From contig CBFGKH010000012.1 in NCBI GenBank assembly GCA_965649295.1, positions 1-40,521 on the forward strand: a stretch of 40,521 bases of DNA, in the 5' to 3' direction. This stretch comes from a candidate division WOR-3 bacterium. Lineage in GTDB: Bacteria > Hydrothermota > Tepidihabitantia > Tepidihabitantales > Tepidihabitantaceae. Positions 1,264-40,521 of this stretch are shown here, one piece after another (position 1 is the first letter of the stretch; every line of letters begins with the position of its first letter). Both the position numbers and the translations under genes were made by a program. The notes beneath the pieces were generated by a model. That model did not search any database, was not told the DNA's origin, and was given only the letters and a program-made list of their open reading frames with translations.

Positions 1264-4200
1264 CTAACGCGCGAAGACGACCTTCCGACTTAGGGTGCCG
1301 TCCGCGCTCTCCAGACGATAGCAGTAAACTCCACGGGCAACCGGCTGCCGCTGTCCGTTACTGCCGTCCCACTGAACAGTGTGGGAACCAGCCTCGACGA
1401 CCCGATCCACCAGCTCAACAACCTGCCGACCAGCCATATCAAACACCGCCAGCCGGACGTGCATCCGCCGCGGCACCGCATAACTGATAGTCGTTGACAA
1501 CCGGAACGGGTTGGGTCCGCTCTCACCAAAGGAAAGCTTGACCGGTGTCACTACTTCCACTCGCTCATCATTCAAACCAGTCCGCGGCAGCGGAGGATTG
1601 GTCGTGTACTTGATCGCCATCCCGGCTCCAATCGTAGCAGCACCACGGTGATAGGTCTGATCGAAAAGGCAGGTGATTCCAACTGTTGACTGCGGATTTT
1701 CGATGCCGACGGTATTGCTGGAATAGCCATTGGCCGTGAGATACTGAGTGACAATCACATTATCGCCAGTCACCGTATAGACCGATGTGTCATAGATAAT
1801 CACCTGGAACCAATCAAAGACGCTTCTTGCCGAGTAGTAAGACATCGAGTCCCACTGCACCACAAAACGGTGATTGGCAGCATCGTGATAGTACCAGACG
1901 CCGTTACTCGTCGGCGGATAGAGGTCATCCCAGTTGACGGCAACGATGCCAGGACTGGCAGCATCAGGCAACCGGGCGTTCGTGTAGGTTGATGCGGTTG
2001 TCGAACCCGGCGCCACCCAGCCGTTACCGCAGATTGATATCTGGTTGAAGGACTGGCCGTAGTAACGCCAGGGACCAAAGCCGGTCGGCAAGCTCACCGT
2101 CTGCGTCTGGTCGTCGCTCAGAGTCAGCCGAGTGCCGACCCCTACGATATTCACCCACGAGAAGACCGGTGCTTCGCTGTAGAAGACGTCGGTTACGTCA
2201 TAGGCATAGTACCGCGGCGCCACTCCTGGACTGTCGGGAATCGGGTCCACGGTACGAATCACACCAATGTCCAGCATAAAGACAGTGCGCGTCACGAGAG
2301 CACCGGTCGTGACAAGTAGCGTGCAGGGCACCTGTGTCTCGCGGGGAATGGCTGCGCTGGCCAGCACGCGGAATCGGTCGCCATCGTTCGTCCCCAGTGT
2401 CTCCCGAGGAATGTCGCCGAAGGCGCCAAGTGAATCGAGAACTGTCAGCCGCGCATCACCGGCACGCAACACCGCAGTCACGCCATAGGCATTGCCAAGC
2501 CCGTTGTTGCGCAGCGTGACTATCAAATCGCCACTTTCGGATGGCTCAATCATGCCGTTGCCATTGCCACCTGGCGCTGGGTCGTCGGCCCTAACCAGGA
2601 CAAACTCCAGTCGCGGGGCACCAACCGTCAGTGTCACCGGCGAGACCCAGACCGAATCACTGGCATCGCGGCATTCCAAGCTGAACCGCACCACATAACC
2701 GTTCGTGCACGTTCCGGCAATCTCAAAACCAAATCCCAGCGCCCCAGAGTAGCTCGAATCCCCAGCCGGGATATTACCGAACTGCCGCACTGAGTCGGTT
2801 ATTGTCACCCGCGGATCAGCCGACCGCAGTCTTGCCGTAACCCCTACTGCCGTGGCGCTGCCCCAGTTCTTCAACCAGACCGGCAGGTTGATCGTCTCAC
2901 CTGGGTTGGGGATGCCGTCGCCGTTGCCAGCGGCATCATCAACCACATGACGCAGATACATCACATAGGCACCAGACGATGGCAGAGCCAGAATCGAACC
3001 AAGGTGTGGCGCAAGATTATGCCCAGTAACCGTAATCAGCACTGTGTCCGGCCGCAGGGTTGTCAGCCCAAGACTCGCAACCCCAGCCGCATTGGTATAG
3101 CCGACGGCCCGGACTGTCGAGTCGCTCACCGACATCGCACAGACGAGCGCACCCCGAACCGGACTCCCCTGAGCAGTCACCCCGACCTCAAGTGGAAAGG
3201 CGCCGACCGGGATCACCGGCGGATACGCAACCGTCAGCTCCCGCGGCTCCAGTGAATAGACATCAACCGCACCGTCACCCATCAGGTTGTACATCTCAAG
3301 ATAGCGACGGGTCATGCTGGTGTTGCCCATCTGCTGGAAGTATATCAACTTGGCTTTGTTGAACCCGCCCATAATCCATGTGAAGGCTGAGTCAAACATG
3401 CAGTCGAATACTCGCCGCTCCAGCGTATCGTCCTCGGTCCAATAGGAGTTCACCGACGAAGCGATGTGCGCCAGCGCTCCCCGCCGACCGTTGCGAATCC
3501 AGGCCTCAGAAAAACACTCGGGATAGCTGGTTGAAGCATAGTTGCCCGAAACACAGGCGTACGTCTGCACATAGGGAATCAGGTCAACATTGGTCAGGGC
3601 TCGAACATCGTTATTGTCGAAATCAGGATCAGCCCAAGATGTCTCGCTACCGTGTCCCGAATAGGTCACCCACGATCGGCCACCATTGATGGCGGTGACA
3701 ATCGGTGTCCCCGAGCCATAGTAAAGCCAGAGTGAGTCACAAACAATTCCCAGCGGCCGCAGCTTGTTCATCACATAGGTATGAGTCCGTTCTGCCACTT
3801 GGTGATTGCCACCATCCGACGAGGCGATGAAGTACTGCTTCTTCAGCCAGGCAGTACCGCCAGTGAGGGTTCGCTGTTCGTAGGCGACCACCCTGGCAAC
3901 GAAGCTGTCCACCTGGGCAGCCGAAACCAGCGAGGCTCGACTAACATCAATATCAGGCAGATAGTCAGTACCCTGGACCAGCGCGTAGTCCAGGTCGGTA
4001 TTCGGGTTACCCTGTCCTTGGCCGGTAAAATAACCAATCCTATCAACATCACCAACTAGCAGAACAAAGCTCGGTGGTACCGGCCAAGTGTTATAGGCGT
4101 TCTGGATGTAGTTCTTGATCACGGTTGCCGAGCTACCGCCGACCTGGGTTAGCGTGCGGACAAAGACATCGAACCCACGCCGTGTTCGCCAAGCAGCCAG

Positions 4201-4920
4201 CGGCCGGATATTAGGCTCCCAGGCATCCGGGACAATGATCAGGTACCCAATCGGCAGGGTCATCTCCGCATCGGTTGCGAACCGCTCTGCCCCATCCACC
4301 ACCCCAACCAGCCGTCCAGCAAAAGCCGGCGACGCATAGCGCTGATGCATCGACCGAGTTGTTGCCCAGTCCGCATCCTCCCAGCGCAGCCGTACAGTCA
4401 TCTGTGTTGCCACCTGGAGTTCATTGCGGCGTGAGTTATAGCTCACCGGCAGAATCTCAACGACCGCAAGGCGGTGGCCTCGAACCTCAACGAACTCCAC
4501 GATTCTCGCGCCCAGCTCGTTTGTCGGCTTGTCAGCGCTGTAGGCATCAGCAGCGAAAGCAAACGCGGGCATCGGCCCTGACTTCGGAACTGACGGCTGA
4601 ACTGGCAACAGCGGCGCTGAAAGATTCAACACTGTCGTGGACTGAACGTCCGCCACGATCGAGACAGTTCCACCATACGGCACTTCGACCAGCCGCCGCA
4701 GCACCGGTACCTGGGGCTCACCCACTCCAGCGCTGACACCGGCTCCGGGCAGCGTCAGCAACTGAAACTGACCCAGGTCAGTAGCGACCGTTGACAGAGA
4801 ATAGTTGTCAGTAGAAAAGGTGTAGCTGCCGCCGTCAGGCAGGTTCGTCCACTGCAGATTCTCTCCTGCAACCGCCAGCGTCGCCAGCACGCCAAAGAAC
4901 AACGACCACTTACGATACAT
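1264..4920 (-). CDS. Secreted gingipain-like C25 cysteine peptidase (propeptide + C25 + large C-terminal module + FlgD/T9SS-type CTD)
   Basis: Signal peptide MYRKWSLFFGVLATLAVA; propeptide GEPQVP; YLIIVP and VLLVGD; catalytic TYSGHG and YACVSG; CFSEAW; YNLMGD; C-terminal PNPF...VRLAVFDMAGRQV...WDG...GVYCYRLE...RKVVFAR. Start moved to ATG 4920 (AGGAGG at 4925-4930). Confidence 0.88.
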   Translation of the reverse strand: MYRKWSLFFGVLATLAVAGENLQWTNLPDGGSYTFSTDNYSLSTVATDLGQFQLLTLPGAGVSAGVGEPQVPVLRRLVEVPYGGTVSIVADVQSTTVLNLSAPLLPVQPSVPKSGPMPAFAFAADAYSADKPTNELGARIVEFVEVRGHRLAVVEILPVSYNSRRNELQVATQMTVRLRWEDADWATTRSMHQRYASPAFAGRLVGVVDGAERFATDAEMTLPIGYLIIVPDAWEPNIRPLAAWRTRRGFDVFVRTLTQVGGSSATVIKNYIQNAYNTWPVPPSFVLLVGDVDRIGYFTGQGQGNPNTDLDYALVQGTDYLPDIDVSRASLVSAAQVDSFVARVVAYEQRTLTGGTAWLKKQYFIASSDGGNHQVAERTHTYVMNKLRPLGIVCDSLWLYYGSGTPIVTAINGGRSWVTYSGHGSETSWADPDFDNNDVRALTNVDLIPYVQTYACVSGNYASTSYPECFSEAWIRNGRRGALAHIASSVNSYWTEDDTLERRVFDCMFDSAFTWIMGGFNKAKLIYFQQMGNTSMTRRYLEMYNLMGDGAVDVYSLEPRELTVAYPPVIPVGAFPLEVGVTAQGSPVRGALVCAMSVSDSTVRAVGYTNAAGVASLGLTTLRPDTVLITVTGHNLAPHLGSILALPSSGAYVMYLRHVVDDAAGNGDGIPNPGETINLPVWLKNWGSATAVGVTARLRSADPRVTITDSVRQFGNIPAGDSSYSGALGFGFEIAGTCTNGYVVRFSLECRDASDSVWVSPVTLTVGAPRLEFVLVRADDPAPGGNGNGMIEPSESGDLIVTLRNNGLGNAYGVTAVLRAGDARLTVLDSLGAFGDIPRETLGTNDGDRFRVLASAAIPRETQVPCTLLVTTGALVTRTVFMLDIGVIRTVDPIPDSPGVAPRYYAYDVTDVFYSEAPVFSWVNIVGVGTRLTLSDDQTQTVSLPTGFGPWRYYGQSFNQISICGNGWVAPGSTTASTYTNARLPDAASPGIVAVNWDDLYPPTSNGVWYYHDAANHRFVVQWDSMSYYSARSVFDWFQVIIYDTSVYTVTGDNVIVTQYLTANGYSSNTVGIENPQSTVGITCLFDQTYHRGAATIGAGMAIKYTTNPPLPRTGLNDERVEVVTPVKLSFGESGPNPFRLSTTISYAVPRRMHVRLAVFDMAGRQVVELVDRVVEAGSHTVQWDGSNGQRQPVARGVYCYRLESADGTLSRKVVFAR

Positions 4921-5053
4921 CAAGCCTCCTAATGTGACAGCAGCCCGCGCTGCCTCTACGCCAATGGGCTCACCGACCTCGGGAGCCGGACTAGTTTGTC
5001 ATTGTGGGTGGCGGTGGCCTCACACCGCTGCCCGCAGATGTCCTAACACTATA

Positions 5054-5082
5054 ATTATAGTGTCTTGGTCGATTCCGGTCAA
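5054..5082 (-). promoter_or_regulatory. Sigma70 promoter of the C25 gene, -10 embedded in an 18-bp palindrome
   Basis: Minus strand TTGACC-17 nt-TATAAT. The palindrome acactataattatagtgt lies at 5046-5063. Confidence 0.75.
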
Positions 5083-5150
5083 ACAGGATAGGTCATTCCC
5101 GCTTCTCCTCCTCCGGCTCCTCTGGTAACTGTCCTATGAGCTCGAGACCA

Positions 5151-5281
5151 GCTTTTCTATGCCTTTCTACCCTTGGTGGTTTTGGCGGCAGCCCACTTCG
5201 ACTTTGTGTCTTAGTGCCCTTGGTCGCGAACCTTCCCTTGATTCTAGACTTACTTTTCCCTCAGTAACCCTGGTGGCAAGA
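5151..5281. repeat. Cluster of three degenerate copies of a dispersed 'gtgtcttagtgcccttggtggcaag'-like repeat
   Basis: ctacccttggtggttttggcggca (~5167-5190), ctttgtgtcttagtgcccttggtcgcgaa (5202-5230) and cagtaaccctggtggcaaga (5262-5281). Confidence 0.6.
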
Positions 5282-5304
5282 ACGGCAGCATAGAGTCGTG
5301 AGGT

Positions 5305-5333
5305 TTGACAATCACTAGTTGCCTGCCTACTAT
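5305..5333 (+). promoter_or_regulatory. Sigma70 promoter of alr (probably leaderless)
   Basis: TTGACA-17 nt-TACTAT, then 6 nt, then ATG 5340. No SD. Confidence 0.7.
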
Positions 5334-5339
5334 GCCCCA

Positions 5340-6524
5340 ATGGACTACGGCCGAATCTGGGCTGAGATTGACCTTGATGCATTCGAGCAGAACCTTACCG
5401 AGCTGCGGCGACTCGCCGGAACCTGTCGCTTACTACTCGCAGTCAAGGCTGAAGCCTACGGGCACGGGCTGACCGAGATTGCGAAGGCAGCAGCAGCTAA
5501 GGTAGACATGATGGGTGTCGCCAGTGTTGAAGAAGGAATCAGCATCCGTCGGGCTGGTATTGCTACCCCAGTGCTCATTCTCTCACCGGTCCCTGATGTC
5601 GACATCCCGGCCCTCTTTGAACACCAACTGACACCCGCAGTGAGCGAGTCGGCGTTCGCCGAACGACTTGCGGAAGAGGCGTCGCACCGTCACACCACAA
5701 TCGGACTGCACGTCGAGGTTGACACCGGCATGGGCCGCACCGGCATTGACTGCAGTGAAGCCGCTGCCTTCATCAGTAGGCTGGTTCAGCTGCCTGGCAT
5801 ACGCGTCGAGGGAATCTTCACCCACTTTCCTGCTGCCGACTCAGATATCGAGTTCTCCCAGCACCAGCTCGAGCTGTACGCCGAGCTGCAGCAACAACTT
5901 GAAAAGCTAGGTGTTGGCAAATTCCTCCGCCATGCGGCCAATAGCGCTGGGCTGTTGAATATCGCTGGCTCCCGCCTCGACCTGGTACGACCGGGGCTCA
6001 TCGCCTATGGAGTTCTGCCCGACTCCTATCATTCCGGTCAACGCCAGACCAACATCAAGGTGAAACCAGTGATGAGTCTACGCTCGAGGATTGTCAATCT
6101 GCGGCGAATTCCTGCCGGTCGTTCAATCGGCTACGAACGTTCGTACTTCACAAGGCGCAACTCGCTGATTGCCGTCATCACTGCCGGCTACGGTGACGGC
6201 TACCCCTGGTCGTTACGCAACCGTGGTGCCGCAATCGTTCGCGGCCGCCGCGCTCCCATAGTCGGCAGTGTCTGTATGGACCTGACCATGCTCGACGTGA
6301 CCGACATACCCGAAGTTAGCCTCGGCGACTCAGTGACCCTGCTCGGCACAGCCGAAAAGGAGACAATCACTGCGAACGAACTGGCTGAATGGGCGGGAAC
6401 GATTCCGTATGAGATAATCTGCCGTGTCAGCCCGCGTGTCCCGCGGATCTACCTGCGGGACAATAAGGTCGTTTCGGTGCGAACCCTGCTTGGTTACGCC
6501 CATGATGACTGGCAACACGACTGA
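5340..6524 (+). CDS. alr: Alanine racemase
   Basis: WAEIDL, PLP-lysine motif AVKAEAYGHG, VDTGMGR, FTHF, HAANS, VRPG, IGY, GYGDG, VCMD and TIPYE. Start re-assigned to ATG 5340. Confidence 0.96.
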   Translation: MDYGRIWAEIDLDAFEQNLTELRRLAGTCRLLLAVKAEAYGHGLTEIAKAAAAKVDMMGVASVEEGISIRRAGIATPVLILSPVPDVDIPALFEHQLTPAVSESAFAERLAEEASHRHTTIGLHVEVDTGMGRTGIDCSEAAAFISRLVQLPGIRVEGIFTHFPAADSDIEFSQHQLELYAELQQQLEKLGVGKFLRHAANSAGLLNIAGSRLDLVRPGLIAYGVLPDSYHSGQRQTNIKVKPVMSLRSRIVNLRRIPAGRSIGYERSYFTRRNSLIAVITAGYGDGYPWSLRNRGAAIVRGRRAPIVGSVCMDLTMLDVTDIPEVSLGDSVTLLGTAEKETITANELAEWAGTIPYEIICRVSPRVPRIYLRDNKVVSVRTLLGYAHDDWQHD

Positions 6525-6771
6525 CAATCCGACAGCTGCTAGCTTCAGCTCGTTAATCATCAGCATCGCCGCCACTGCCCTAGCTTATCTCGGGCACGGT
6601 AACCTGCCGGGCACCGACAAAGTCGAGAAGAACCTCGACCTCGCCCGTCAGGCCATTGACACGATCGCGATGCTCAAGGTCAAGACCGAAGGCAACCGCA
6701 CACCCGAAGAGACCAAACTGATTGATGAGCTGCTCTTCCAGCTCCGGGCGGAATACGTGCGGGCGTCCTGA
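6502..6771 (+). CDS. DUF1844-family protein
   Basis: FSSLIISIAATALAYLG...LDLARQAIDTIAMLKVKTEGNRTPEETKLIDELLFQLRAEYV fits the DUF1844 pattern from memory. Start is ATG 6502 or 6505, overlapping the alr end. Confidence 0.8.
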   Translation: MMTGNTTDNPTAASFSSLIISIAATALAYLGHGNLPGTDKVEKNLDLARQAIDTIAMLKVKTEGNRTPEETKLIDELLFQLRAEYVRAS

Positions 6772-6792
6772 CCGATAGCCACAATCAGCATC

Positions 6793-6820
6793 TTGACACT
6801 AGGTGACTGCCGACTATCTT
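6793..6820 (+). promoter_or_regulatory. Candidate sigma70 promoter of plsY-gpsA-merR
   Basis: TTGACA-16 nt-TATCTT, 8 nt before ATG 6829. No SD. Confidence 0.55.
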
Positions 6821-6828
6821 GAGCTCGA

Positions 6829-7443
6829 ATGACTGCCGACCTTACTAGAGTTGTCAGCTCGCTGCTTGCCGGTTTCGTGTTCGGCTCAATCCCCTTCGGC
6901 CTGCTGATCAGCAAATCACGTGGCATTGACATCCGTCAGCACGGCTCGGGCAATATTGGTTTTACCAATGCCCTCCGGACCCTGCCCTGGCCCTGGGCCT
7001 TGGCGGTCCTTCTGCTCGATATTGCTAAAGGCGCACTGCCGGTCGCCTTGGCACCAAGATTTGGGCTCCTGACAGCGCTCGTCGGCAGCGGTGCAGTCCT
7101 TGGCCACGTGCTAACGCCCTGGCTCGGGTTCCGCGGTGGTAAGGGCGTTGCCACCGCCATCGGCGTCGCTGCCATACTCACCCCACGCAGCCTGCTGCCG
7201 GCCATGGCCCTATACCTCGGGCTGTTACTTCTCGCCGGCATCGTCTCACTCGCGTCTCTGTCCCTCGCCGTGTCATTGCCTCTGCTCACCACCGTAATCT
7301 ACCCCCGCGACTGGCAGCTGCTCGGCTTCACCCTCACCACTGGCATCATCATCCTCCTCAGACATCGCTCCAACATCACCCGTCTCGCGGCCCGAACCGA
7401 GCCCCGCCTGAACATATGGCTGCGTCTGTTCCGCCGACAATGA
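6829..7443 (+). CDS. plsY: Glycerol-3-phosphate acyltransferase (acyl-phosphate dependent)
   Basis: GSIPFG, DIRQHGSGNIGFTNALR, DIAKG, GH..TPWLGFRGGKGVAT and RHRSNITRL. Multi-TM protein adjacent to gpsA. Confidence 0.95.
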   Translation: MTADLTRVVSSLLAGFVFGSIPFGLLISKSRGIDIRQHGSGNIGFTNALRTLPWPWALAVLLLDIAKGALPVALAPRFGLLTALVGSGAVLGHVLTPWLGFRGGKGVATAIGVAAILTPRSLLPAMALYLGLLLLAGIVSLASLSLAVSLPLLTTVIYPRDWQLLGFTLTTGIIILLRHRSNITRLAARTEPRLNIWLRLFRRQ

Positions 7444-8528
7444 AAAAGACGATTGGTAGTAACGAATCCTCTCCGTCAACTGGCCCGCACCCGTCTCCCT
7501 CATCGTGCCTTGGCACCTTTGATGGCAAGAAACGAACTATCGGATTCTTGGGAGCTGGACGCTGGGCCCTCACCCTCGCCGTCCATCTCGACGCCATCGG
7601 CTTCCATGTCACCCTCTGGGAAACAGAGTCAGCTGCCCTCCAGCGACTCCAGTCCACCCGTTCGCATCCAGACCTGCCACCATCTTTCGCTCTGCCCAGC
7701 TCAGTCAAAGTGACTGACTCCCTAACCGACACCCTTGCCGACGCTACGATACTCGTCTTCGCCGTGCCATCAGCAGCGCTCGCAGCCGTTGCCCAAGCTG
7801 CGGCTCAACACAACCAAACCTGTCAAACGATTGTCACCGTGACCAAAGGCCTCGAGCCACAGACCCAGGAACGGCTCTCCTGCATACTGCAGCAGGCATT
7901 CCCACAAGTACCGGTCGTAGTTCTTGCCGGCCCCGGCATACCATATGCCATGGCTGCTGGTGACCCAACATCACTGGTCGCCGCTTCCCAGAACGAGATA
8001 GCTGCTGAAGTTATTCGTGACACATTCACTGGCGGGAATCTACGCGTTTACTCACACAATGACGTCGCCGGCGTCGAACTCGGGGCAGCCCTCAAGAACG
8101 TCATAGCCATCGCTGCTGGCGTTGCCGACGGCCTTGGCCTCGGCATCAACGCCAAGGCCGCACTACTCACCCGTGGCTTGGCCGAGATAATGCGACTCGG
8201 CCAGGCACTCAACACCAACCCCCTCACCTACGCCGGCCTGACCGGCATAGGTGACCTGATTGTCACTGCTTTTTCCGAGTATTCACGAAACCACCGACTC
8301 GGCCAGTACATCGGTCAAGGTACGACACCAGCCGATGCCCTGCGCCGCCTAAACGGCGTAGCCGAAGGTGCAGTGACCTGCCGGTCAGCCCGCACGCTGG
8401 CCGCCAGGCACAACATCGAGATGCCAATCACCGAAGAAGTCTACCAACTTCTATATGCTGCGGCGGCGCCGCGAGAATCGCTAGCCCGACTGCTTGGTCG
8501 CCGACCCAAACCAGAGGTCTGGAGATGA
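7440..8528 (+). CDS. gpsA: NAD(P)H-dependent glycerol-3-phosphate dehydrogenase with a repeat-derived N-terminal extension
   Basis: GAGRW, AVPS, TKGLE, LAGP, GVELGAALKNVIAIAAG, GIGDLIVT, SRN, EG and EMPI. ATGA overlap with the plsY stop. Confidence 0.93.
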   Translation: MKKTIGSNESSPSTGPHPSPSSCLGTFDGKKRTIGFLGAGRWALTLAVHLDAIGFHVTLWETESAALQRLQSTRSHPDLPPSFALPSSVKVTDSLTDTLADATILVFAVPSAALAAVAQAAAQHNQTCQTIVTVTKGLEPQTQERLSCILQQAFPQVPVVVLAGPGIPYAMAAGDPTSLVAASQNEIAAEVIRDTFTGGNLRVYSHNDVAGVELGAALKNVIAIAAGVADGLGLGINAKAALLTRGLAEIMRLGQALNTNPLTYAGLTGIGDLIVTAFSEYSRNHRLGQYIGQGTTPADALRRLNGVAEGAVTCRSARTLAARHNIEMPITEEVYQLLYAAAAPRESLARLLGRRPKPEVWR

Positions 8529-8854: not shown

Positions 8855-8930
8855 TTACCTTTCCTACCCCTGTTTCGTTCTAAATGCTGTTTCTACCCTC
8901 GGTGGCAGAACCTTGCCTGGCCGCCGCTGC

Positions 8931-10814: not shown

Positions 10815-10874
10815 AGTTCCTCCTCTAAATGAACTATGATGGTAACCGGCTATTCGGAAGCCCAGATTCCAGGA

Positions 10875-14175: not shown

Positions 14176-14177
14176 GG

Positions 14178-28805: not shown

Positions 28806-30858
<2,053 letters not shown>

Positions 30859-30932: not shown

Positions 30933-31901
30933 CTACTCTGGCTGCGGACGACAGACAACGGTACTGTGCAACTCCAGCCAGTCGAGCAGTTGTGACACCC
31001 GGCCCTGAGCAAGACCAATACAGGTATCGGCAGCGCCGTAGTAAACATTGATGCTGTCACCGTCATCGCCCAGTGTCGTGCCGCAGACAAAAACAACGTC
31101 ACTGACATCGCCCTGCCGTTCCCACGGCTCATCCGGACCAAGCACCCACTCGTCGCTGCGGCGCAGACATCGCTCCGGCTGCTCGCGGTCCAGCAGCGCC
31201 AGGCCCTGCCGATACAGACAGCCGGCAGCGGTCTGTTTCACACCGTGGTAGAACATCAACCAGCCACGCGCTGTCTCAATCAGCGGCCCGCTCAGCCCAA
31301 TCTTATTCGCATCCCACCAGGCCCCACGCCGTGGCAGTAGCACCGGTCGGTGTCTTCCCCAGTGAAGCAGGTCTGGTGACTCGGCTAGCCAGATGCTGGC
31401 ACCAAGTCCGGTATGAGGCCGATGTAGCATCAGCCATCTGCCGTCAAACCGTCGTGGGAGCAGGGCCGCATCCTTATCATCGGGTGGCATAACCACCCCC
31501 AACCGTTCGAACTGACGGAAGTCGCTTGTCAGCGCCAAGCTGACTGCTGGACCAGCCGGTGAGTAAGCAGTGTAGGTGACAGCATATCTGCCAAGCTCAG
31601 GCAGATAGACAATTCGTGGGTCCTCAACGCCCCAGAGTTCTTCCGGGTGAGTATCCGGGCTGGGCACGAGTGCCGGTTCCGGGTCAATCTGCCAGTCACC
31701 GACACCGTCTCGCGACCTCGCTACCCAGAGCATCGAGATGCCCCGTCGGTCTTCAACCCGACAGAGAAGCAGGGTGGTGCCATCAGCCAATCGCACTACA
31801 CCGGGGTTGAAAACGGTATTGATGGTAACCGGCCAGTCTTTGGCCGAAAGGATTGGATTGCCGGCCACCCGTCGCAACAGACCGTTATCCTGACCGGTCA
31901 T
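30933..31901 (-). CDS. GH130-family glycosidase/phosphorylase (5-bladed beta-propeller)
   Basis: NPIL, VFNPG, RVED, WGVEDPRI, YTAYS, DKDAAL.P, HRP, KIG...P, YHGV, VVF.CG and YYGAADT. AAGGAG SD. Confidence 0.88.
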   Translation of the reverse strand: MTGQDNGLLRRVAGNPILSAKDWPVTINTVFNPGVVRLADGTTLLLCRVEDRRGISMLWVARSRDGVGDWQIDPEPALVPSPDTHPEELWGVEDPRIVYLPELGRYAVTYTAYSPAGPAVSLALTSDFRQFERLGVVMPPDDKDAALLPRRFDGRWLMLHRPHTGLGASIWLAESPDLLHWGRHRPVLLPRRGAWWDANKIGLSGPLIETARGWLMFYHGVKQTAAGCLYRQGLALLDREQPERCLRRSDEWVLGPDEPWERQGDVSDVVFVCGTTLGDDGDSINVYYGAADTCIGLAQGRVSQLLDWLELHSTVVCRPQPE

Positions 31902-31950
31902 CTTCCAGGTTCTCCTTCAGTAGTACCGTCCTGGCGGTCAAACCTACTGC

Positions 31951-34218
31951 TCACTTTGCCTCCTCAATCAGCAACTTCGTCTTACCCATGGTCAGTCGGG
32001 CCAACAGCCAGGCCAGGGTTGATTCCGCCCCCTGATTGAGGCTCACCCGGTCCGGTTCCAACCCATCATGACAGCCGCCAGTAGCGTAGTCATAGAGGGG
32101 CAGGCCAAGGTCGTTACGGCCAAAGAACCACTCAAATGCCCGCACCATCACCTGCCACCAGCGAATGTCGCGCGTCACCTGATAGGCGGCCCGGCCGGCG
32201 TCAATCATCGTCTGCGCCTCGATCGGTTGTTGGGCAAATCTCGCTCGTTCCCCGCCCCGCCGATACCAACCGTTCGAGCCAATCGGCACAAAGTGGCCTT
32301 CGGCCGCGGTTGTCACACCGACCAGCCAGTCGAGCGCTGTGAGCGCATCGTCTACCATGTCCCGACGCCCCATCGCCTGGCCCGAAACAAGCAGGGCATG
32401 GCCGAGCCGGGCATTGGCATAGGTAAGCGATTCTTCGAACCAACGCCAGTCTGCAGTTGCGTTAGCCTGATAGAGCCGATGCAGCCGCTCGGCCAACACT
32501 TCGCGCATACGCCGACCATTCGAGTCACCCGGGAACTTCCGCAGATAGTGATCGAGCCCAAGTAGCGTATAGGCCCAGGCCCGCGGACTGGTAAATAGCT
32601 CGGTTGCCGGCAGGGCTGCCGCTAGCAGGTTCATCGCTGCTGCGGCCATTGCCTCATCCGGCGATAGATTGACTACCCAGCCCAGGGCCATAAGAGCGCG
32701 GCCATGACAGTCCTCAGACCCACAGTCATCAAGCCAACGCCGGTCATAGCTCATCAGATTGTGAAATCGTCCCAACTCCGGAATGAAAGCGTAGTTGAGA
32801 AAAGCAAGATAACGCGATGTCAACACCCGCAGCTCCGACTCAGTCGGCCCAAACTCTCGACTTGCAACTGCCACCATCAATGCCCGGGCATTGTCGTCAG
32901 TTGTGTAGCCCTCAGCATAGTTTGGCACTGAGAAGCGCGCGTGCTGGAAGATACCGGTTGTATCCGACAGCCGCCGCAGGTGCGAAAGATCAACCTCAGG
33001 CAGCTCAACGTCCTGCTCAGCCAAGGTCGCGACCCGGCCGACAGGTCGTGGCCGCTGCTGCCGGTCCGCCCGTGCCCGCGCGAACAAGTCTAGGTAGCGT
33101 CTGGCTACCTCACGCCAGACCATCTGCCGACCGAAAGTGTAGGCCCGCTTGCGCATCGCGTGACGCTCCACCTCATTGTCAAAGAGCCAAATCACCTTCT
33201 CAGCGAGAGCAGTCGGATCGCGAAACGGCACGAGCACACCCCGACCTTCAGCGAGCAGGTCAATCGCATACCAGTAGGGCGTTGAGATTACCGCCTTGCC
33301 TGTGCCAAGCGCATAAGCAAGTGTACCAGAGGTGATCTGTTCCTCATTCAAATAGGGTGTCACATAGATATCAGCCGCACCCAGAAACTCGCGGAGCTCG
33401 CCGATTGACACAAACCGGTTGTGGAAAACGATACTGTCTTGCACCCCAAGCTGCCGGGCCCGCCGAGCCAAGCCCTGCCGATACTCCTCGCCATGTTCGC
33501 GCCGGACATGGGGATGGGTAGCACCGAGCACGATATAGACTACGTCCGGATACTTGGCCACGACTGCCGGCAGCGCCGCAATCATGTTCTCAATACCCTT
33601 GTTGGGCGACAGCAACCCAAACGTGAGAATCACCCGCCGGCCCTCGACTCCAAACTTGTCCTTGTAGAAGTTCGGATCAACAAAGGGCATGTCGGGAATA
33701 CCGTGGTGAATCATCTCAACCTTCTCGTCCGGCACACCCCAGATTGTTCGCAAGAACTCCTGTGCCCGCTCACTCATCACGACCAGCCGGTCCGAGAGCC
33801 GACAGATTTCGTCCATCACCCGCCGTTGTTCATCATTCGGGTTCTTCAATACCGTGTGCAACGTTGTAACAATCGGCACCCGTAGTCGCCGCAGAGTAAT
33901 CAGCAGGTCAGCGCCAGCCGGACCGCCAAAGATGCCATACTCATGCTGCACACAGACGAGACTCGCGCCGCCCATGTTGATGAAGTCGGCAACCTGACGG
34001 TAGCCTTCCGGGTCACGCTGCGGAACTTCAAACCTGACCCGTGCCGGGTAGTCATAGCCTTCGGCGGTGTCGTTCATCGCTACCGCGTAGCAGTCAACAT
34101 CAACTGCCTCCTGGGCAACCGCCTCGCACAGGTCGGTCGTGAAAGTAGCGATGCCGCACTGCCGTGGCAGATAGTTGCCAAAGAATACTATCGAGTTGAG
34201 ACCAATTGCTTTCACCAC
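31951..34218 (-). CDS. Family-4 glycosyltransferase fused to a C-terminal helical (six-hairpin glycosidase-like) domain
   Basis: YLPRQCGIATFT, QHEYGIFGG, TTLHT, TFGLLSPNKG.E and PYLNEEQITSGTL; then GYTTDDNARAL, SEDCHGR, LTYANA, QQPIE and GCHDGL..NQGAESTL. Start GTG 34218 after AAGGAG. Confidence 0.88.
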   Translation of the reverse strand: MVKAIGLNSIVFFGNYLPRQCGIATFTTDLCEAVAQEAVDVDCYAVAMNDTAEGYDYPARVRFEVPQRDPEGYRQVADFINMGGASLVCVQHEYGIFGGPAGADLLITLRRLRVPIVTTLHTVLKNPNDEQRRVMDEICRLSDRLVVMSERAQEFLRTIWGVPDEKVEMIHHGIPDMPFVDPNFYKDKFGVEGRRVILTFGLLSPNKGIENMIAALPAVVAKYPDVVYIVLGATHPHVRREHGEEYRQGLARRARQLGVQDSIVFHNRFVSIGELREFLGAADIYVTPYLNEEQITSGTLAYALGTGKAVISTPYWYAIDLLAEGRGVLVPFRDPTALAEKVIWLFDNEVERHAMRKRAYTFGRQMVWREVARRYLDLFARARADRQQRPRPVGRVATLAEQDVELPEVDLSHLRRLSDTTGIFQHARFSVPNYAEGYTTDDNARALMVAVASREFGPTESELRVLTSRYLAFLNYAFIPELGRFHNLMSYDRRWLDDCGSEDCHGRALMALGWVVNLSPDEAMAAAAMNLLAAALPATELFTSPRAWAYTLLGLDHYLRKFPGDSNGRRMREVLAERLHRLYQANATADWRWFEESLTYANARLGHALLVSGQAMGRRDMVDDALTALDWLVGVTTAAEGHFVPIGSNGWYRRGGERARFAQQPIEAQTMIDAGRAAYQVTRDIRWWQVMVRAFEWFFGRNDLGLPLYDYATGGCHDGLEPDRVSLNQGAESTLAWLLARLTMGKTKLLIEEAK

Positions 34219-34341
34219 TGCCGGGACTCCTTTCGCCGGACAATTGCTGCCGATTCTAGCCTGACTACCTGTCCCAAGCAAGCCCTGGCAAACTGCCACC
34301 AGCCGTCAGAATGGCAACGACGCCGACCAGTCAAACCAAGA

Positions 34342-34371
34342 GCTGGGAGCGGGATGACTCCCGCTCCCAGC
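34342..34371 (-). terminator. Intrinsic terminator-like hairpin after the second C25 gene
   Basis: gctgggagcggga-tgac-tcccgctcccagc is a perfect 13-bp stem, followed on the minus strand by tcttggttt. Confidence 0.75.
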
Positions 34372-34392
34372 AAGGATAAGGCCAGCCTTAGT

Positions 34393-37300
34393 CTAGCGGA
34401 GCATCACCGCCCTGGTGGTCACCCGGCCAGCATCGGTTTCGAGCCGATAGAGATACGTGCCGTTTGCAACGAGCTGGCCCGCGTCATCGCGACCGTCCCA
34501 TTGCACTGTATAGCTGCCAGCTTCGACCTGGCCGCTAACCAGGGTTCGGACGGCCCGACCGCTCACATCGAAGACCACGAGCCGTACCCGGCCCGGTACC
34601 GGCACCTGCCAGTTGACACCAGCGCTGGTCCGGAACGGATTGGGAGCCACTGCCAAGGCGAGGCCACGGTTCAGCCTAACACCACTAGCCGCAGCCTCCT
34701 TGACGCCCACAAACGGTGGGTCAGTCGTGAACTTGATTGCCCGGTTGGCCGTCAACGCCGAGCTACCGCGGTGGTAGTTGTTGTCGAATAGACACTGAAT
34801 ATAGACTCCCGTTGTGGGAACCGCCTGCTCGCCAACCGTGCACGAGGACGGGTCAGTGATTATCTGGTACTGCATCACCGCCTCGCAGTTGCCGTCCCAG
34901 GCAGCCAGGGTTGTATCATAGAGGATAATCTGGAACTTCTGATAATTCGACTGAGCACGATAGAAAGGCACCGAGTCATACTCAACGATGAAGCGATGGT
35001 TCGCCGCGTCGTGATACCACCAGACTCCACCGCCGTAGGGCGGATACATGTCGTCCCAGTGTAGGAAGAAGGCCGGCGGCAGTGAGGTGTTGGGTAAGGC
35101 CGTGTTCGTATAGGTCGAAACCGTGGTCGAACCCAACCCGACCCAACCGTTGCTGCAGATCGAGAGCGTCGTGTAGTTCTGCCCGTAGAACCGGAACGGC
35201 CCGAAGCCAGCCGGCAGGTTGATGGTGACGGTCTGGTCATCAGAAAGCGTCAGCCGTGTACCCAGGCCAGCAATCTCGACCCAGTTGTACTGCGGTGCCT
35301 CACTATACATCGTGTCGGTGTTCTCGTAAGCCCAGTAAAGTGCGGGGGTACGCGGCCCATCCGGAATCGGATCAACCGGTCTAATCTCGCCAACCATGAT
35401 TGTGAACGGCATTCGCTGCACCAACGCACCGCAAGTCACAATCAGCGTACAGGAAATCGGCGTCTCCGGTGCCATCGCTAGAGTTGTGACCGCGAACCGA
35501 TCTGCACTATTCGTGCCCGTGCTCTCCGCCATAATCAGGCCATAGGTACCAAGCGAGTCATCAACCAGCAACCGACTATCACCCGAACGCAACACTGCCG
35601 TCACGTTAGCAGCGTGGCCAAATCCGGTGTTGCGCAGGGTGACCATCAGTTCGGCGCTCTCACTCGGATCAATCCGGCCATTACGGTTACCGCCGGGCAC
35701 ATTGTCGTCAACCGCGTAACCGACATAAGCCAGGTTCGGCGCGCCAACCCGAATCATAACCCGTGATGTCCAAGTTGAATCGTTCGCATCCCGACAGACG
35801 AGCTGGAACTGAATCATATGCCCATTGGTACAGGCCGGCGCGACCGTAAATTCGTAGCCGTCTGCTCCGGTCCAGGCCGAGTCGCGCGCCAGCACTGTCC
35901 CGAAGTTATGCGTCGAGTCAGTCAGGGTAACAAACGGGTCGCTGATGCGCAATGTACCAACCAGACCCACCGCGTTTGAGTCACCATGGTTCTTCACCCA
36001 GAGCGGTAGATTGATTGTCTCTCCCGGATTGACGCTACCGTCACCGTTGCCACCGCCGACATCATCAATCGTATGCCGCAGATAGGTGACATAGGCGGTG
36101 CCTGATGTCTGCGCCAGACAAGTACCCTCAAACGGCAGGATCTTCTGTCCGGTCACGGTGACGTGGAACTCACCCGGGGTCAGAGCATTGATCGCCAAAG
36201 TAACCGTTCCCGCGGCATTGGTGTAGCCGGTGACATAGAACTCGCCCGGCTTCCACAAACAGACGAGCGCGTCCTTGACCGGTGTGCCCTGCCGAGTGAC
36301 CGTTAGTGTCATGTCAAACTGCCCAAGCGGGGCGATAGGCACGTAGTCAACAGTCGGCGCTGCTGGCGCCCCGGTCCAAACACTGAGTGCTGGGTCACCG
36401 AGCCAGTAGTACATCTGCGCATTGTCAGTGCCGCCCTGTGAGCTGTAGTAGCGCTGGATATAGGCATCGGCATTGTTCAGCATCCAGCCCAGATCGTACG
36501 TCGGGCAGGAGTAGAGCCGTACTCCCGGCACGTTGTTCTGATAGGTATCGCCGAGACAGCGGAAGAGCAGCGAGTCCCAACCATGATTCGGAATCGTATA
36601 GGAGGCCTCGGAGGCGCCGACCGAGGCCACGGCTCCGCCCGGATACTTGCGCATCCAGGTTTCACCCATGCACGAAGGTGTCGAAAGGACATGATTGAGG
36701 CAGCAGCAGTTGATCACAACCGGCGTCATGTCGCCGTTGGTCAGAGCATTGACCTGGGCCGCACCCCAACTAGCACCGTTCCGGTCCCAGCCAGTCCATG
36801 ACGTCTCGTCGCCATGGCCACGGTAGTTGACTACTACCCTGCCTTCGTTGATTGCACTCGTGACCATCGCATTGGTACCGTTAGCACCGCCGAAGATGGT
36901 GTCAAAGTTGTAACGGTAGAGCGGGTATGGGAAGTTAAAGATGCCGCGCGAGCAGGCCGCGTACTTCAGCGGATACTGCTCCGAGTGCGCTACCAGCGAG
37001 ACCCGGCTGAACCAGTCGGGAGTCATTGGTGGGTCTTTCTGGAACTTCAGCGTCTTGAGAATCTGTTTGCGCAAGTCGGCCGTGTCCGTAACGCTGAACC
37101 GGCCCAGCCCGACATCAAAGTAGTTGTCCGGCGATGCCGGCGGGACCACATCAACGTACCAGATATCAGCACCGCCGACTGCCGGGTAGTTGTGCTGTGG
37201 AATCTGGTTGTACTCGCCAACGAGAAGCACCCAGCGCAGCACCGGCGGATTGTTGCGATTATACTCAGCCTTGACCGATTCGCGGATGGCAACATCGGTC

Positions 37301-38097
37301 CAGTTCGAGCCATAGATTACCCGCGTCCTGACGCCACGCTTGTAATGCCAGGCGACCAGGCTGTCAAGCCAGCTATTCTGATAAGCACTGTGCGCAATCA
37401 CTAAATAGCGGACGCCCGGATTATCGTTCCAGCGGACATCAACCGGCAACTGATCGAAGTTATCAATGTGCGAGCTGTAAATCCCGGCGAGCCAAGGTTC
37501 AATCACTCGTCGCACCGGCGTACCCGGATGATTCACCCGGACGCGCAGGTGCGTATAGACGCGCAGCTCCTGCTTGGCCGCGTTGTAGGTGACTGGCGAG
37601 ATTTCGATGGTAGCAAACGGCAGTTCGCGCCACTGCGACTGCAAACTCACCCGCGCGAGCTCAGCCGGATACTGAACGTCCTTGGCATAGGCTGCCGGGT
37701 CAATCGTGAACTCTGGCTCGTCGTGGTCAGTCAGTGGCCGCTGGGCCGGGTAAACAAGCACACCGGCGTAGGTCTGATACTCTGCTTCCAGCACCTCAAC
37801 CGTAACTCTCGCATTGTCCGGCAATCCCAGATTGCTGACAATCTGGGGCAACGCCGGTGCCCCAATGATGCCGGTCATCGCCGGCTGCCCTGGCAGGGAC
37901 AAAGCCGTGTAGGTCTGACCGGCCTCAATCTTCTGCTGGGTCTCAACGCCAGTCAGCGTGATGTCCAGCACCGTAGCACTGCTGCCCTCACTCTGCACCT
38001 GCACTCGGGGAGCAGCCGGGCTACCATTGCCCAGCCAACCGCCCACAGCGATGCCAGCCAGAGCCAGCAGCACCAGCACGAAACTAGTCTGTCTCAC
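34393..38097 (-). CDS. Second secreted gingipain-like C25 peptidase with the same C-terminal module
   Basis: GTG 38097 after AAGGAG; signal VRQTSFVLVLLALAGIAVG; GAPALP, YLVIA, VLLVGE, GRF, NYRGHG, CCCLNH, CMGETW and WLGDP; CTD PNPF...FDVSGR...WDGRD...GTYLYRLE. Confidence 0.88.
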   Translation of the reverse strand: MRQTSFVLVLLALAGIAVGGWLGNGSPAAPRVQVQSEGSSATVLDITLTGVETQQKIEAGQTYTALSLPGQPAMTGIIGAPALPQIVSNLGLPDNARVTVEVLEAEYQTYAGVLVYPAQRPLTDHDEPEFTIDPAAYAKDVQYPAELARVSLQSQWRELPFATIEISPVTYNAAKQELRVYTHLRVRVNHPGTPVRRVIEPWLAGIYSSHIDNFDQLPVDVRWNDNPGVRYLVIAHSAYQNSWLDSLVAWHYKRGVRTRVIYGSNWTDVAIRESVKAEYNRNNPPVLRWVLLVGEYNQIPQHNYPAVGGADIWYVDVVPPASPDNYFDVGLGRFSVTDTADLRKQILKTLKFQKDPPMTPDWFSRVSLVAHSEQYPLKYAACSRGIFNFPYPLYRYNFDTIFGGANGTNAMVTSAINEGRVVVNYRGHGDETSWTGWDRNGASWGAAQVNALTNGDMTPVVINCCCLNHVLSTPSCMGETWMRKYPGGAVASVGASEASYTIPNHGWDSLLFRCLGDTYQNNVPGVRLYSCPTYDLGWMLNNADAYIQRYYSSQGGTDNAQMYYWLGDPALSVWTGAPAAPTVDYVPIAPLGQFDMTLTVTRQGTPVKDALVCLWKPGEFYVTGYTNAAGTVTLAINALTPGEFHVTVTGQKILPFEGTCLAQTSGTAYVTYLRHTIDDVGGGNGDGSVNPGETINLPLWVKNHGDSNAVGLVGTLRISDPFVTLTDSTHNFGTVLARDSAWTGADGYEFTVAPACTNGHMIQFQLVCRDANDSTWTSRVMIRVGAPNLAYVGYAVDDNVPGGNRNGRIDPSESAELMVTLRNTGFGHAANVTAVLRSGDSRLLVDDSLGTYGLIMAESTGTNSADRFAVTTLAMAPETPISCTLIVTCGALVQRMPFTIMVGEIRPVDPIPDGPRTPALYWAYENTDTMYSEAPQYNWVEIAGLGTRLTLSDDQTVTINLPAGFGPFRFYGQNYTTLSICSNGWVGLGSTTVSTYTNTALPNTSLPPAFFLHWDDMYPPYGGGVWWYHDAANHRFIVEYDSVPFYRAQSNYQKFQIILYDTTLAAWDGNCEAVMQYQIITDPSSCTVGEQAVPTTGVYIQCLFDNNYHRGSSALTANRAIKFTTDPPFVGVKEAAASGVRLNRGLALAVAPNPFRTSAGVNWQVPVPGRVRLVVFDVSGRAVRTLVSGQVEAGSYTVQWDGRDDAGQLVANGTYLYRLETDAGRVTTRAVMLR

Positions 38098-38183
38098 TTC
38101 TGCACTCCTTTCGGTCTGAAAGCCCAACGCCCGCAGCAGACAGCAGCGGTACTCTTGGGCCAATTGGATGAACTCATCCCAAG

Positions 38184-40521
38184 CTACCGCGTCAGCACGG
38201 CCTTGCGCGAAAGCTCACCAAGCGAACTTTCGAGCCGGTAGAAATAGATGCCAGCCGCAAGTTCACGGCCATTCTCATCAGCACCATCCCAGCTAATTGA
38301 ATAGCTGCCCGCTGCCTGCTGACCGACACCAGTATTGACAAGCTCTCGCACCACCCGGCCGGCAGCGTCATAGACCGCTAGCCGCACGCTAGCTGGCTGC
38401 GGCAGCGAGTAGCTCAGCACGACCCGACCAGCAAAAGGATTGGCTGACGGCATCAGGCTCAAACGACCAGCTGGCAGCGACGTTGGCGGTGCCGCAATGC
38501 CGACTAGTGGTTCAACCGTCAGATAGCGGGTTGCCCGGCCAGCAACAATCGGCATCGCCCCGCGGTGGTAGCTGCCATCAAAAAGCGCCTGGATAAAAAT
38601 GGTTCGGCTCGGGTCTTGCTCACCGACCGTGCACGAACTCGGGTCGTCAACCCGCCGATACTGCACGACTACTTCGCAGTTTCCATCGGGTGCCGCACGC
38701 GTTGTATCGTAGAAGATAATCTCGAATGTCTCAAAGCTTGTGCGAGCACGGTATAGTGAGATTGAATCATACTGCACAATTAGCCGGTGGTTCGCCGCGT
38801 CGTGATACCAGAAGACGCCATTGCCGGTCGGCGGATAAAGGTCATCCCAGAATCCGAAGATCGCCGGCGGCAGTGAGGTGTTAGGCAGGGCCGTGTTGGT
38901 GTAGGTAGAAACCGTTGTCGAGCCCAGTCCGACCCAGCCGTTGCTGCAAATCGAAAGCATCGTATAGTTCTGGTTGTAGAACCTGAACGGTCCGAATCCG
39001 GCCGGGATAGTAATCTGCACAGTCTGGTCATCAGAAAGCGTCAGCCGTGTGCCTAGCCCGGTGATGTCAACCCAGTTATAGACCGGCGCCTGCTGGTATA
39101 GCGCATCACCATCGTCATAGGCCCAGTAGAGGGCCGGGGTTCGCGGCCCGTCACTAATCGGGTCAACCTGCGTCACCCTGCCAACAGTGATACCGAAAGC
39201 AACCGTTGTCGGCGGGTAACCGGTCTGGGTAATACGCAGTGAACAAGGAATCACAAACTCGCGCGGAATGGCGGCACTTGCCCTGACTCGGAAATGATCA
39301 GCTTCATTCATCACCCAGGAATCAGCCGGTACCAAGCCATAGACTGCGGTCGAGTCTAACACCTCAAATCGAGCATCAGCCGACACCAGCACCGCGCTTA
39401 CGTCATAGCCATTACCCAGCCCCCGATTCTTCAACTGGATCGCAATGTCGCACTCCTCGCCCGGGTCAATCTTGCCGTTGACTCCGTCATACGCAAAGAC
39501 CGAATCCGCAACATAGCGCGGCGTACCGACCAGAATCGAAAAACCGGTCACCCAGACTGAGTCGTTGGTATCGGTAACCGCGAGATCAAACTTCAACTCA
39601 TAGCGATTGGTGCAGGATGCGGCAACGGCAAAATGGTAGCCGTCAGCACCGGTATAGCCGAGCGAATCCTCCAGAATCGAACCAAAGTAGCGCACCGAAT
39701 CCGTAATCGTAATGTTCCCGTCATTCGTCCGCAGCACGCCGGTAACACCGTACGCGGTGAAATCGCAGAGATTGACAACATAGACCGGAAGGTTGATCTG
39801 CTCACCCGGGTTGACGATTCGGTCGTTATTGCCACCCAAACTGTCGTCAATAATGTGGCTGTGATATCTCACACCGAAAGGCGGTTGTGTCGCATTCACT
39901 GCGGCCAGCGCGTCAATGCGGCCAGCACCGAAATCATTGTCCTTGCCGGCCGGGCCAAGGTCAAAGGCCGTAGTTTCGAGAATCGAGTCTATCTGCCTCG
40001 GGGTCAGGTTCGGGTTCTTCTGCAGCATCAGACAGACCACCCCTGCCGTATGCGGCGTGGCCATCGAGGTGCCGTCCATCAGTTGATAGCCGCTGCCGGT
40101 GTAGCTGCACGACTTCACGGCCACACCCGGCGCCGACACATCCGGCCGCGTCAGCCCTGGCGGATAGGCATAGTCGTTATACGGCGCAACCGACTGCCAG
40201 GATGTCGGCCCGGTGCTTGAGAAGCTGGCAATCCTATCAAGACTGTCAGTCGCGCCAATCGACGTGATGCCCGACAATGCACCGGTGCCGGTGTTCTGTG
40301 GGTTCCACCACGGCGGCGGTGCATTACCCGGACAACGGCAGTTGTTCGGTGGCGGGAAGTAGCCGCGCTCGTTGCCCGCAGCCACCATCTGGGCCAGACC
40401 AGCCGCGTTCACCACATCCGCAGTCTGCCGCCACACCGCCTGCGCCGGATTCCACGAAATGTACCAGCCCAAGGACATCGTGTAGAGGTCAGCTCCGTTC
40501 GCCGGCGACAATGGCGGCGAC
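38184..40521 (-). CDS. S8 (subtilisin-like) serine peptidase with the same C-terminal module; 5' end outside the window
   Basis: MSLG, AAGNE (oxyanion Asn), FSSTGP, PDVSAPG, DGTSMATPHTAG (catalytic Ser) and FGAGRIDA, then the shared module and CTD. The frame is open to the window edge. Confidence 0.9.
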   Translation of the reverse strand, partial: SPPLSPANGADLYTMSLGWYISWNPAQAVWRQTADVVNAAGLAQMVAAGNERGYFPPPNNCRCPGNAPPPWWNPQNTGTGALSGITSIGATDSLDRIASFSSTGPTSWQSVAPYNDYAYPPGLTRPDVSAPGVAVKSCSYTGSGYQLMDGTSMATPHTAGVVCLMLQKNPNLTPRQIDSILETTAFDLGPAGKDNDFGAGRIDALAAVNATQPPFGVRYHSHIIDDSLGGNNDRIVNPGEQINLPVYVVNLCDFTAYGVTGVLRTNDGNITITDSVRYFGSILEDSLGYTGADGYHFAVAASCTNRYELKFDLAVTDTNDSVWVTGFSILVGTPRYVADSVFAYDGVNGKIDPGEECDIAIQLKNRGLGNGYDVSAVLVSADARFEVLDSTAVYGLVPADSWVMNEADHFRVRASAAIPREFVIPCSLRITQTGYPPTTVAFGITVGRVTQVDPISDGPRTPALYWAYDDGDALYQQAPVYNWVDITGLGTRLTLSDDQTVQITIPAGFGPFRFYNQNYTMLSICSNGWVGLGSTTVSTYTNTALPNTSLPPAIFGFWDDLYPPTGNGVFWYHDAANHRLIVQYDSISLYRARTSFETFEIIFYDTTRAAPDGNCEVVVQYRRVDDPSSCTVGEQDPSRTIFIQALFDGSYHRGAMPIVAGRATRYLTVEPLVGIAAPPTSLPAGRLSLMPSANPFAGRVVLSYSLPQPASVRLAVYDAAGRVVRELVNTGVGQQAAGSYSISWDGADENGRELAAGIYFYRLESSLGELSRKAVLTR

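Follow-up and report, generated by a model that had tools for sequence, protein, structure and literature searches.

A sorting tail with a NIDO-like domain is reused across peptidase families in a WOR-3 bacterium

Among described systems, the closest are the gingipains RgpA and Kgp of Porphyromonas gingivalis, in which a C25 peptidase head precedes haemagglutinin/adhesin domains and a type-A sorting domain of type IX secretion systems (T9SS). A second point of reference is the NIDO domain (PF06119), found in nidogen-1/2, alpha-tectorin, mucin-4, SNED1 and SUSD2; we know of no function for it, in animals or elsewhere. Bacteria of candidate division WOR-3 have not been brought into culture. They are named among the lineages richest in extracellular peptidases in an estuary-sediment study (PMC4411801). 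Here, we describe three peptidase genes, A, B and C, on a complete 40,521-bp contig (CBFGKH010000012.1, C12; hereafter the window) of a WOR-3 genome of 2.28 Mb in 19 contigs, rated 100% complete. All three end in one shared tail, which contains a diverged NIDO-like domain and recurs on other peptidases of the same genome.

The three tails are colinear, spanning amino acids (aa) 656-1219 of A (1264-2958), 694-1256 of B (34393-36084) and 217-778 of C (38184-39872). They measure 564, 563 and 562 aa and are 49-54% identical in pairwise comparison (A-B 298/558, A-C 270/551, B-C 302/554). Each runs through two related immunoglobulin (Ig)-like sandwiches, a 220-aa all-beta NIDO-like domain, a linker of 20-24 residues and a type-A T9SS sorting domain. 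The original prediction, read from the DNA letters and their translations, had proposed a colinear tail of about 565 aa on two C25 heads and one S8 head, with module ends at 2970, 36097 and 39880, two related D/N/G-rich units and a FlgD/T9SS-type end. This outline held throughout. The computed tail starts lie 8-13 nucleotides (nt) from those ends, and all of the quoted motifs are present. The two units are homologous to each other (24/81 identical, 30%; expectation value (E) 1e-11), and the three C-termini match FlgD_ig, with E between 1.7e-5 and 1.9e-12. In each of A, B and C, the final ~80 residues also match TIGR04183 ('T9SS type A sorting domain') above its 23-bit cut-off.

To place the tail in its genome, a profile of the three window copies of the middle domain was searched against the genome's open reading frames (ORFs). 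It recovered 25 copies in 24 ORFs (E 1e-146 to 2e-9), and a second profile was built from all 25. Eight of the 24 proteins carry a C25 head, two an M14 carboxypeptidase, and one each an S8, M28 or M6 peptidase; four are Kelch/Ig giants, and seven are without a recognised head. By local hidden Markov model (HMM), the S8 protein has both Ig-like units, as do at least 7 of the 8 that carry a C25 head. Proteins with an M14 or M28 head have unit 2 only, and so do two head-less proteins of 454 aa (G000:C2:194854-196215) and 451 aa (G000:C9:82603-83955; L057:14604-15959), one protein of this set having a partial extension into unit 1. The head-less pair are tail-only, consisting of unit 2, the NIDO-like domain and the sorting domain. 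A sorting-type domain forms the C-terminus of all 24 ORFs; the NIDO-like domain ends 68-83 residues before the C-terminus, directly ahead of the sorting domain, in 16 of them and is far from the C-terminus in 8. At least five peptidase families carry the tail, which is a reusable cassette. The plug-and-play tail of the original prediction was borne out, and the profile search for other heads that it had proposed returned more head types, here and in relatives, than it had seen.

The history of the NIDO-like domain differs from that of the heads. Its copies form three supported groups that cut across head type: A with L030; L032 (C25) with L033 (M28); and B and C with L026, L027, L028 and L029. 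The domain of A is sister to that of L030 (support 99/95), and the domain of the S8 protein C is sister to that of the C25 paralog L027 (96/96). We forced the six C25-headed tails into one clade, a group that was named after viewing a FastTree tree and that is defined by head type, independently of the tail. For the NIDO-like domain, this constraint cost 105 log-likelihood units (delta lnL) and was rejected by the approximately unbiased (AU) test (p-AU 9e-7), while on unit 2 it cost 1.8 lnL and was not rejected (p-AU 0.41). On a 140-row domain tree with 113 rows labelled, head type changed 12 times, against a minimum of 4 for five states and 28-30 in five label shuffles. The NIDO-like module has therefore moved between genes that carry different heads, the breakpoints falling near domain borders.

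The NIDO-like domain is also the most conserved segment of the tail, under far stronger purifying selection than its neighbours. Among B, C and L026-L029, six of the ten chassis paralogs with C25, S8 and M14 heads, it is 65-83% identical, as against 34-59% for the units (two-unit proteins) and 28-45% for the sorting domain. The NIDO-like domain has a median terminal branch of 0.2 in its maximum-likelihood tree, versus 0.77 for unit 2. Codon identity at identical residues, compared over eight pairs, is 43-57% in the domain versus 32-59% in its flanks. Since codon identity is equal inside and outside, synonymous sites are equally saturated, and the high protein identity reflects purifying selection. 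Recent gene conversion was considered as the source of the high identity and rejected, as codon identity is no higher inside the domain than in the flanks.

Two long paralogs carry additional copies of tail parts. L030 (G000:C10:13691-18574), a C25 protein of 1627 aa, has, upstream of its normal tail, an additional unit-2-like copy (aa 679-777), and database relatives of 1628 aa exist for it. L039 (G000:C1:211-6810), a 2199-aa Kelch/CARDB/Ig giant, contains the NIDO-like domain twice, at aa 435-644 and 778-993, together with a sorting tail. Across the genome, about 136 ORFs carry a sorting-type domain that lies no more than 12 residues from the C-terminus, about 112 of them without a NIDO-like domain. 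Together these ORFs total 109,926 aa, or ~330 kb of 2.28 Mb, a very large secreted or surface share, although the count may be too high.

We turned to the identity of the middle domain. A first scan of the three tails gave no Pfam family for it at E≤10, which makes it understandable that the original prediction took it for a domain without a named family; that view did not stand. Against Pfam NIDO itself, the copies of A and C score weakly (Table 1) and B gives no match. Among all 25 paralog copies, 11 match NIDO at E≤1, and two exceed its 25-bit cut-off, L022 with 26.1 and L025 with 25.8 bits; the three-copy profile recovers these same two at E 2.1e-17 and 2.4e-9, respectively. Searched against 1.84 billion proteins, the 25-copy profile matched 35,188 representative clusters at E≤0.001, a number that falls to 20,187 at E≤1e-10 and to 4,692 at E≤1e-30; many of the carriers are giants, and a single protein can hold as many as 14 copies. 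The NIDO cut-off is passed, with 29-104 bits, by 25 of 31 database relatives that were hand-chosen from the best 150 matches (two giants and, for the rest, shorter ones). In the ESM Atlas, the clusters nearest to the B domain carry NIDO (scores 0.94 and 0.90), and among PDB sequences the domain profile matches residues 50-191 of a chain named RemA in 8gl6 (E 4.1e-13). Motifs 'F.FYG..Y..lsv.sNG' and 'W.D', which we take to be shared with animal NIDO, are visible in the paralog alignment. Transitive homology, rather than a direct Pfam match, therefore places the middle domain in the NIDO-like superfamily as a diverged member.

The B copy of the domain has four cysteines ('SICSNGW', 'DGNCE', 'SSCTVGE', 'IQCLFD') that recur in several of its closest paralogs, while gene A and the more distant copies are without most of them. 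These four residues may form disulfides in this one subtype.

AlphaFold2 modelled the B NIDO-like domain with high confidence (Table 1). Foldseek of this model against the PDB gave 0 matches at E≤0.001; its weak fold neighbours, N-domains of sugar enzymes, are within noise. A PllA lectin match to the domain profile (E 0.024) was too weak to use. The absent fold match fits a T9SS translocon study by cryo-electron microscopy, in which only the sorting domain of the trapped substrate, a RemA homologue, was well resolved, so that it gives no structure of the NIDO-like part (PMC10994853). For the two preceding units, AlphaFold2 was run on a 236-residue region of B with an alignment of 19 paralog rows, and it returned two beta sandwiches at a predicted local distance difference test score (pLDDT) of 94.6. 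Foldseek gave 268 PDB matches to this model at E≤0.001, all tandem Ig-like or beta-barrel domains, the best being tandem domains of transglutaminases, BspA, RbmA and WxLIP. On this model, the tail units adopt a generic tandem Ig-like sandwich. Pfam CARDB (PF07705) stays below its 22.7-bit cut-off (best 15.1 bits, E 0.027, unit 1 of B), and we call the units 'CARDB-like' only. Among PDB chains, those of FlgD match the B sorting domain (E 4.8e-7). The AlphaFold and Foldseek analysis that the original prediction had suggested was thus informative for the two units, which match Ig-like folds, and gave a confident model but no PDB match for the NIDO-like domain.

The heads are those that the original prediction had named. 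In gene A, Pfam Propeptide_C25 covers aa 35-182 and Peptidase_C25 aa 227-554 (E 6.5e-57, 193.9 bits); in gene B, the corresponding matches are aa 68-211 and aa 253-595 (E 3.9e-45, 155.1 bits). The A head matches RgpB at E 9.3e-31 and Lys-gingipain (Kgp, 4rbm) at E 5.1e-33, its GHG His and its Cys both falling on their counterparts in the Kgp alignment; the His/Cys dyad of B was identified by eye in the translation. Genes A and B are accordingly placed by sequence in family C25, each with a propeptide and a predicted catalytic domain with a His/Cys dyad. Gene C matches Pfam Peptidase_S8 at aa 8-200 (E 2.4e-26, 93.2 bits), over profile positions 109-288 of 288. Its 'GTSMATPH' Ser motif is present, and the N-terminal part of the catalytic domain, with the Asp and His positions, falls beyond the contig end. 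Full-length S8-headed relatives in the database are 1041-1065 aa, so roughly 270-290 residues of gene C are missing. Hydrophobic N-termini are visible in the translations of A and B; that of C is off the contig.

Outside the window, the genome encodes candidates for the machinery such tails would require. A 1864-aa ORF matches SprA_N above its cut-off (56.7 bits), PorV-like barrels also exceed theirs (36 bits), and two ORFs resemble the PorU C25 sortase along nearly its whole length (positions 3-1093 of 1095 aligned), the higher-scoring of the two, with 369 bits, being a neighbour of a PorV-like gene. Putative translocon and attachment genes of the SprA, PorV and PorU types are therefore present, by profile match.

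Table 1. Positions of the three peptidase genes, the parts of their tails and the PorU-like genes. Unprefixed positions are those of the window; pTM, predicted template modelling score.
Feature	Position	Strand	Basis or remark
Gene A	1264..4923	-	ORF, 1219 aa, TTG start; C25 (gingipain-like) peptidase and shared tail
Gene B	34393..38163	-	ORF, 1256 aa, TTG start; C25 peptidase and shared tail
Gene C	38184..40520	-	ORF, 778 aa; S8 subtilase and shared tail; 5' end cut by contig end
A tail unit 1 (Ig-like sandwich, 'DD..GNGDG..NPGE' loop)	2620..2958	-	Fold inferred from model of homologous B segment
A tail unit 2 (Ig-like sandwich)	2251..2619	-	Alignment boundaries and B-based model
A NIDO-like domain	1591..2250	-	Profile match E 3.6e-134; Pfam NIDO E 0.02, 15.3 bits
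A T9SS type-A sorting domain	1267..1518 (stop 1264-1266)	-	FlgD_ig E 1.7e-5; TIGR04183 26.8 bits
B tail unit 1 (Ig-like sandwich)	35743..36084	-	AlphaFold2 pLDDT 94.6; Foldseek best E 1.5e-7
B tail unit 2 (Ig-like sandwich)	35377..35742	-	AlphaFold2 model and Foldseek; related to unit 1
B NIDO-like domain	34714..35376	-	AlphaFold2 pLDDT 94.0, pTM 0.92, all-beta
B T9SS type-A sorting domain	34396..34647 (stop 34393-34395)	-	FlgD_ig E 1.1e-11; TIGR04183 27.2 bits
C tail unit 1	39525..39872	-	Alignment boundaries
C tail unit 2	39168..39524	-	Alignment boundaries
C NIDO-like domain	38508..39167	-	Profile match E 9.9e-147; Pfam NIDO E 0.081, 13.4 bits
C T9SS type-A sorting domain	38187..38447 (stop 38184-38186)	-	FlgD_ig E 1.9e-12; TIGR04183 26.9 bits
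PorU-like genes	G000:C9:70389-75000 and G000:C6:27219-30440		One directly upstream of PorV-like barrel gene

We then asked how far the chassis extends among relatives. In an even sample of the phylum, the exact chassis was matched at E≤1e-30 in 49 of 121 genomes, including 11/11 others from the same family and another 8/8 from the same order. Copy number is 3-15 in each of these family and order members, versus 16 in this genome. Chassis ORFs of about 1060, 1240, 1020, 450, 1640 and 880 aa recur in relatives, and ORFs of 449-458 aa carrying the NIDO-like domain recur in many of them. In the sampled database relatives, the domain is found alongside peptidases of the S8, C25, C11 and M4/M36 types, and the proteins' ends are of T9SS, dockerin/cohesin or RTX type. 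The lineage-specific character claimed by the original prediction is upheld for the exact chassis and fails for the domain itself, which is spread over the 35,188 clusters reported above.

Gene C lies upstream of gene B on the same strand, its 3' end 20 nt away (38163-38184). The same order, an S8-headed gene directly upstream of a C25-headed gene, is found with a 3-nt gap in the relative G120 (L053:3376-10380). In relatives G081 and G010, the upstream gene of the tandem is cut by the contig end and its head is not visible, and the tandem of G117 is C25-C25. The kept S8-C25 tandem suggests co-transcription. Gene B is followed directly downstream, on its own strand (window 30933-34299), by a gene for a 782-aa glycosyltransferase with GT4/GT1 domains and by a GH130 mannoside-phosphorylase-like gene. 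A scan of the 21 other large window ORFs, which have housekeeping or unrelated functions, gave no operon or island link to neighbours.

What does the tail do? On balance, we think it probable that it is a non-catalytic export-and-display cassette for T9SS-like cargo, in which the NIDO-like domain binds a common ligand near the surface. Proteins bearing it would cross the outer membrane via SprA/PorV, directed by the sorting domain, and a PorU-like sortase would then cleave off the sorting domain and anchor the protein. This would leave the NIDO-like domain, the direct neighbour of the sorting domain in 16 of the 24 proteins, closest to the cell surface. There, it could bind one common ligand, whether a glycan of the envelope or matrix or a partner common to these proteins, with one or two Ig-like units acting as spacers that keep the catalytic head off the surface. 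The NIDO-like domain would fill the functional place that haemagglutinin/adhesin domains take in RgpA and Kgp. The original prediction had put forward a stalk, adhesin or assembly unit; in our reading, the tail would be a stalk for surface display that includes a ligand-binding module. The head-less 451- and 454-aa proteins count in favour of the tail as an independent module.

Several points weigh against this interpretation. The ligand, binding site and localisation of the NIDO-like domain rest on inference, and its membership in the superfamily is transitive, because the three window copies fall below the 25-bit NIDO cut-off. On the side of secretion, the PorU-like matches score 369 and 340 bits, under the NCBIfam cut-off of 420 bits. 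GldM (TIGR03517, PF12081) and PorP/SprF (PF11751) gave no match in the genome, a result that is uninformative because the controls matched nowhere or below cut-off. The T9SS components that the original prediction had proposed to look for were thus found in part, as SprA-, PorV- and PorU-like genes. Finally, the sorting-domain census came from an iterated home-made HMM and may over-count. A homodimer prediction for two NIDO-like copies scored 0.00 against a mark of 0.42; run without controls, it speaks neither for nor against binding. No RNA runs were on record for window 34393-36084, a blank that carries no information on expression.

An alternative that we consider unlikely, yet the strongest of those weighed, is that the NIDO-like domain serves as a carbohydrate-binding module or lectin that docks the peptidases not on the cell's own surface but on particulate food (glycoproteins, cell-wall debris or exopolymer, for example). 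Elsewhere the domain is joined to S8, C25, C11 and M4/M36 peptidases whose ends are of dockerin/cohesin, RTX or T9SS type, which makes it independent of the anchoring route, and it is N-terminal both in the sequence of an adhesin named RemA and in the Kelch giants of this genome. Its weak fold neighbours would suit a sugar-binding role as well, although these matches are within noise. Across the 25 paralog copies there are invariant or near-invariant Trp, Tyr, Asp and Asn, and residues of these types are common in sugar sites. To our knowledge, no ligand is known for any NIDO domain, which counts against docking on food, and the position right before the sorting domain in 16/24 fits a surface-proximal role at least as well.

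Two further proposals take the domain as a means of assembly. The more ambitious one, which we regard as improbable, makes it a dedicated docking module that would mount a dozen or more different proteins, C25, S8, M14 and M28 hydrolases as well as head-less forms, on a common WOR-3 surface receptor, giving a cell-bound, cellulosome-like 'proteolysome'. The head-independent domain subtypes would then correspond to three docking specificities, an extension to which we give just as little credence. If true, this would supply the first ligand and function for any NIDO domain. In the other, which is somewhat less probable still, NIDO-like domains would bind each other or a scaffold to form multi-enzyme proteolytic complexes on the cell, like gingipain-adhesin complexes or cellulosomes, again with the three subtypes as three docking specificities. 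Very high conservation across paralogs with different heads is what such a unit would show, as are three well-supported subtypes that cut across head type. The conserved head-less tail proteins could serve as scaffolds or caps, and the S8 gene stands directly upstream of the C25 gene both here and in G120 (gaps of 20 and 3 nt). Set against these points, no scaffold candidate was found in our analysis, and there was no positive sign of interaction.

Least probable of all is that the NIDO-like domain merely helps translocon passage, release or cargo folding, with no role after export: it always comes with a sorting domain (24/24) and is directly adjacent to it in 16/24, but ~112 of ~136 sorting-domain ORFs do without it, it is far from the C-terminus in 8/24, and elsewhere it occurs with non-T9SS ends such as dockerin or RTX.

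If the tail is indeed an export-and-display cassette, one genome's peptidase arsenal would be organised around a single such cassette, reused on several peptidase families. Its NIDO-like core is extremely conserved and confidently predicted, and is without a solved fold. As a small soluble bacterial domain on assayable enzymes, it would offer a practical route to a NIDO structure and ligand. Searches of open-access full text gave no paper that connects WOR-3 to C25, gingipain or T9SS, no paper that connects nidogen-like domains to T9SS, and none on a NIDO-like domain in bacteria. The NIDO family is already catalogued (PF06119) and very widespread in bacteria.

Compared with RgpA and Kgp, genes A and B are alike in their propeptide and C25 catalytic domain and in their layout of head, Ig-like spacer, non-catalytic beta domains and type-A sorting domain. 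They differ in that the gingipains have a region of 'cleaved adhesin' type, whereas the tail here has two CARDB-like sandwiches and a NIDO-like domain; the tail is also found on S8, M14 and M28 heads, and the host is a WOR-3 bacterium, not a member of the Bacteroidota. The likeness to NIDO (PF06119) is one of transitive homology, with 2/25 paralog copies and 25/31 sampled relatives passing the cut-off, whereas the window copies reach 13-15 bits or give no match and stand in a bacterial context of peptidases and T9SS cargo. RemA/RemZ-type T9SS adhesins of Flavobacterium johnsoniae are linked to the domain by the profile match to the RemA chain in 8gl6, and the translocon report describes adhesins of this type as type-A T9SS cargo as well (PMC10994853). 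In RemA, unlike here, the domain is N-terminal and belongs to a large adhesin without a peptidase. Other bacterial peptidases among the database representatives, with S8, C25, C11 or M4/M36 heads, also combine a NIDO-like domain with T9SS tails. In this genome, by contrast, a fixed chassis of unit, NIDO-like domain and sorting domain has been multiplied across several peptidase families within one small genome, and the chassis comes with head-less forms and three subtypes of the domain.

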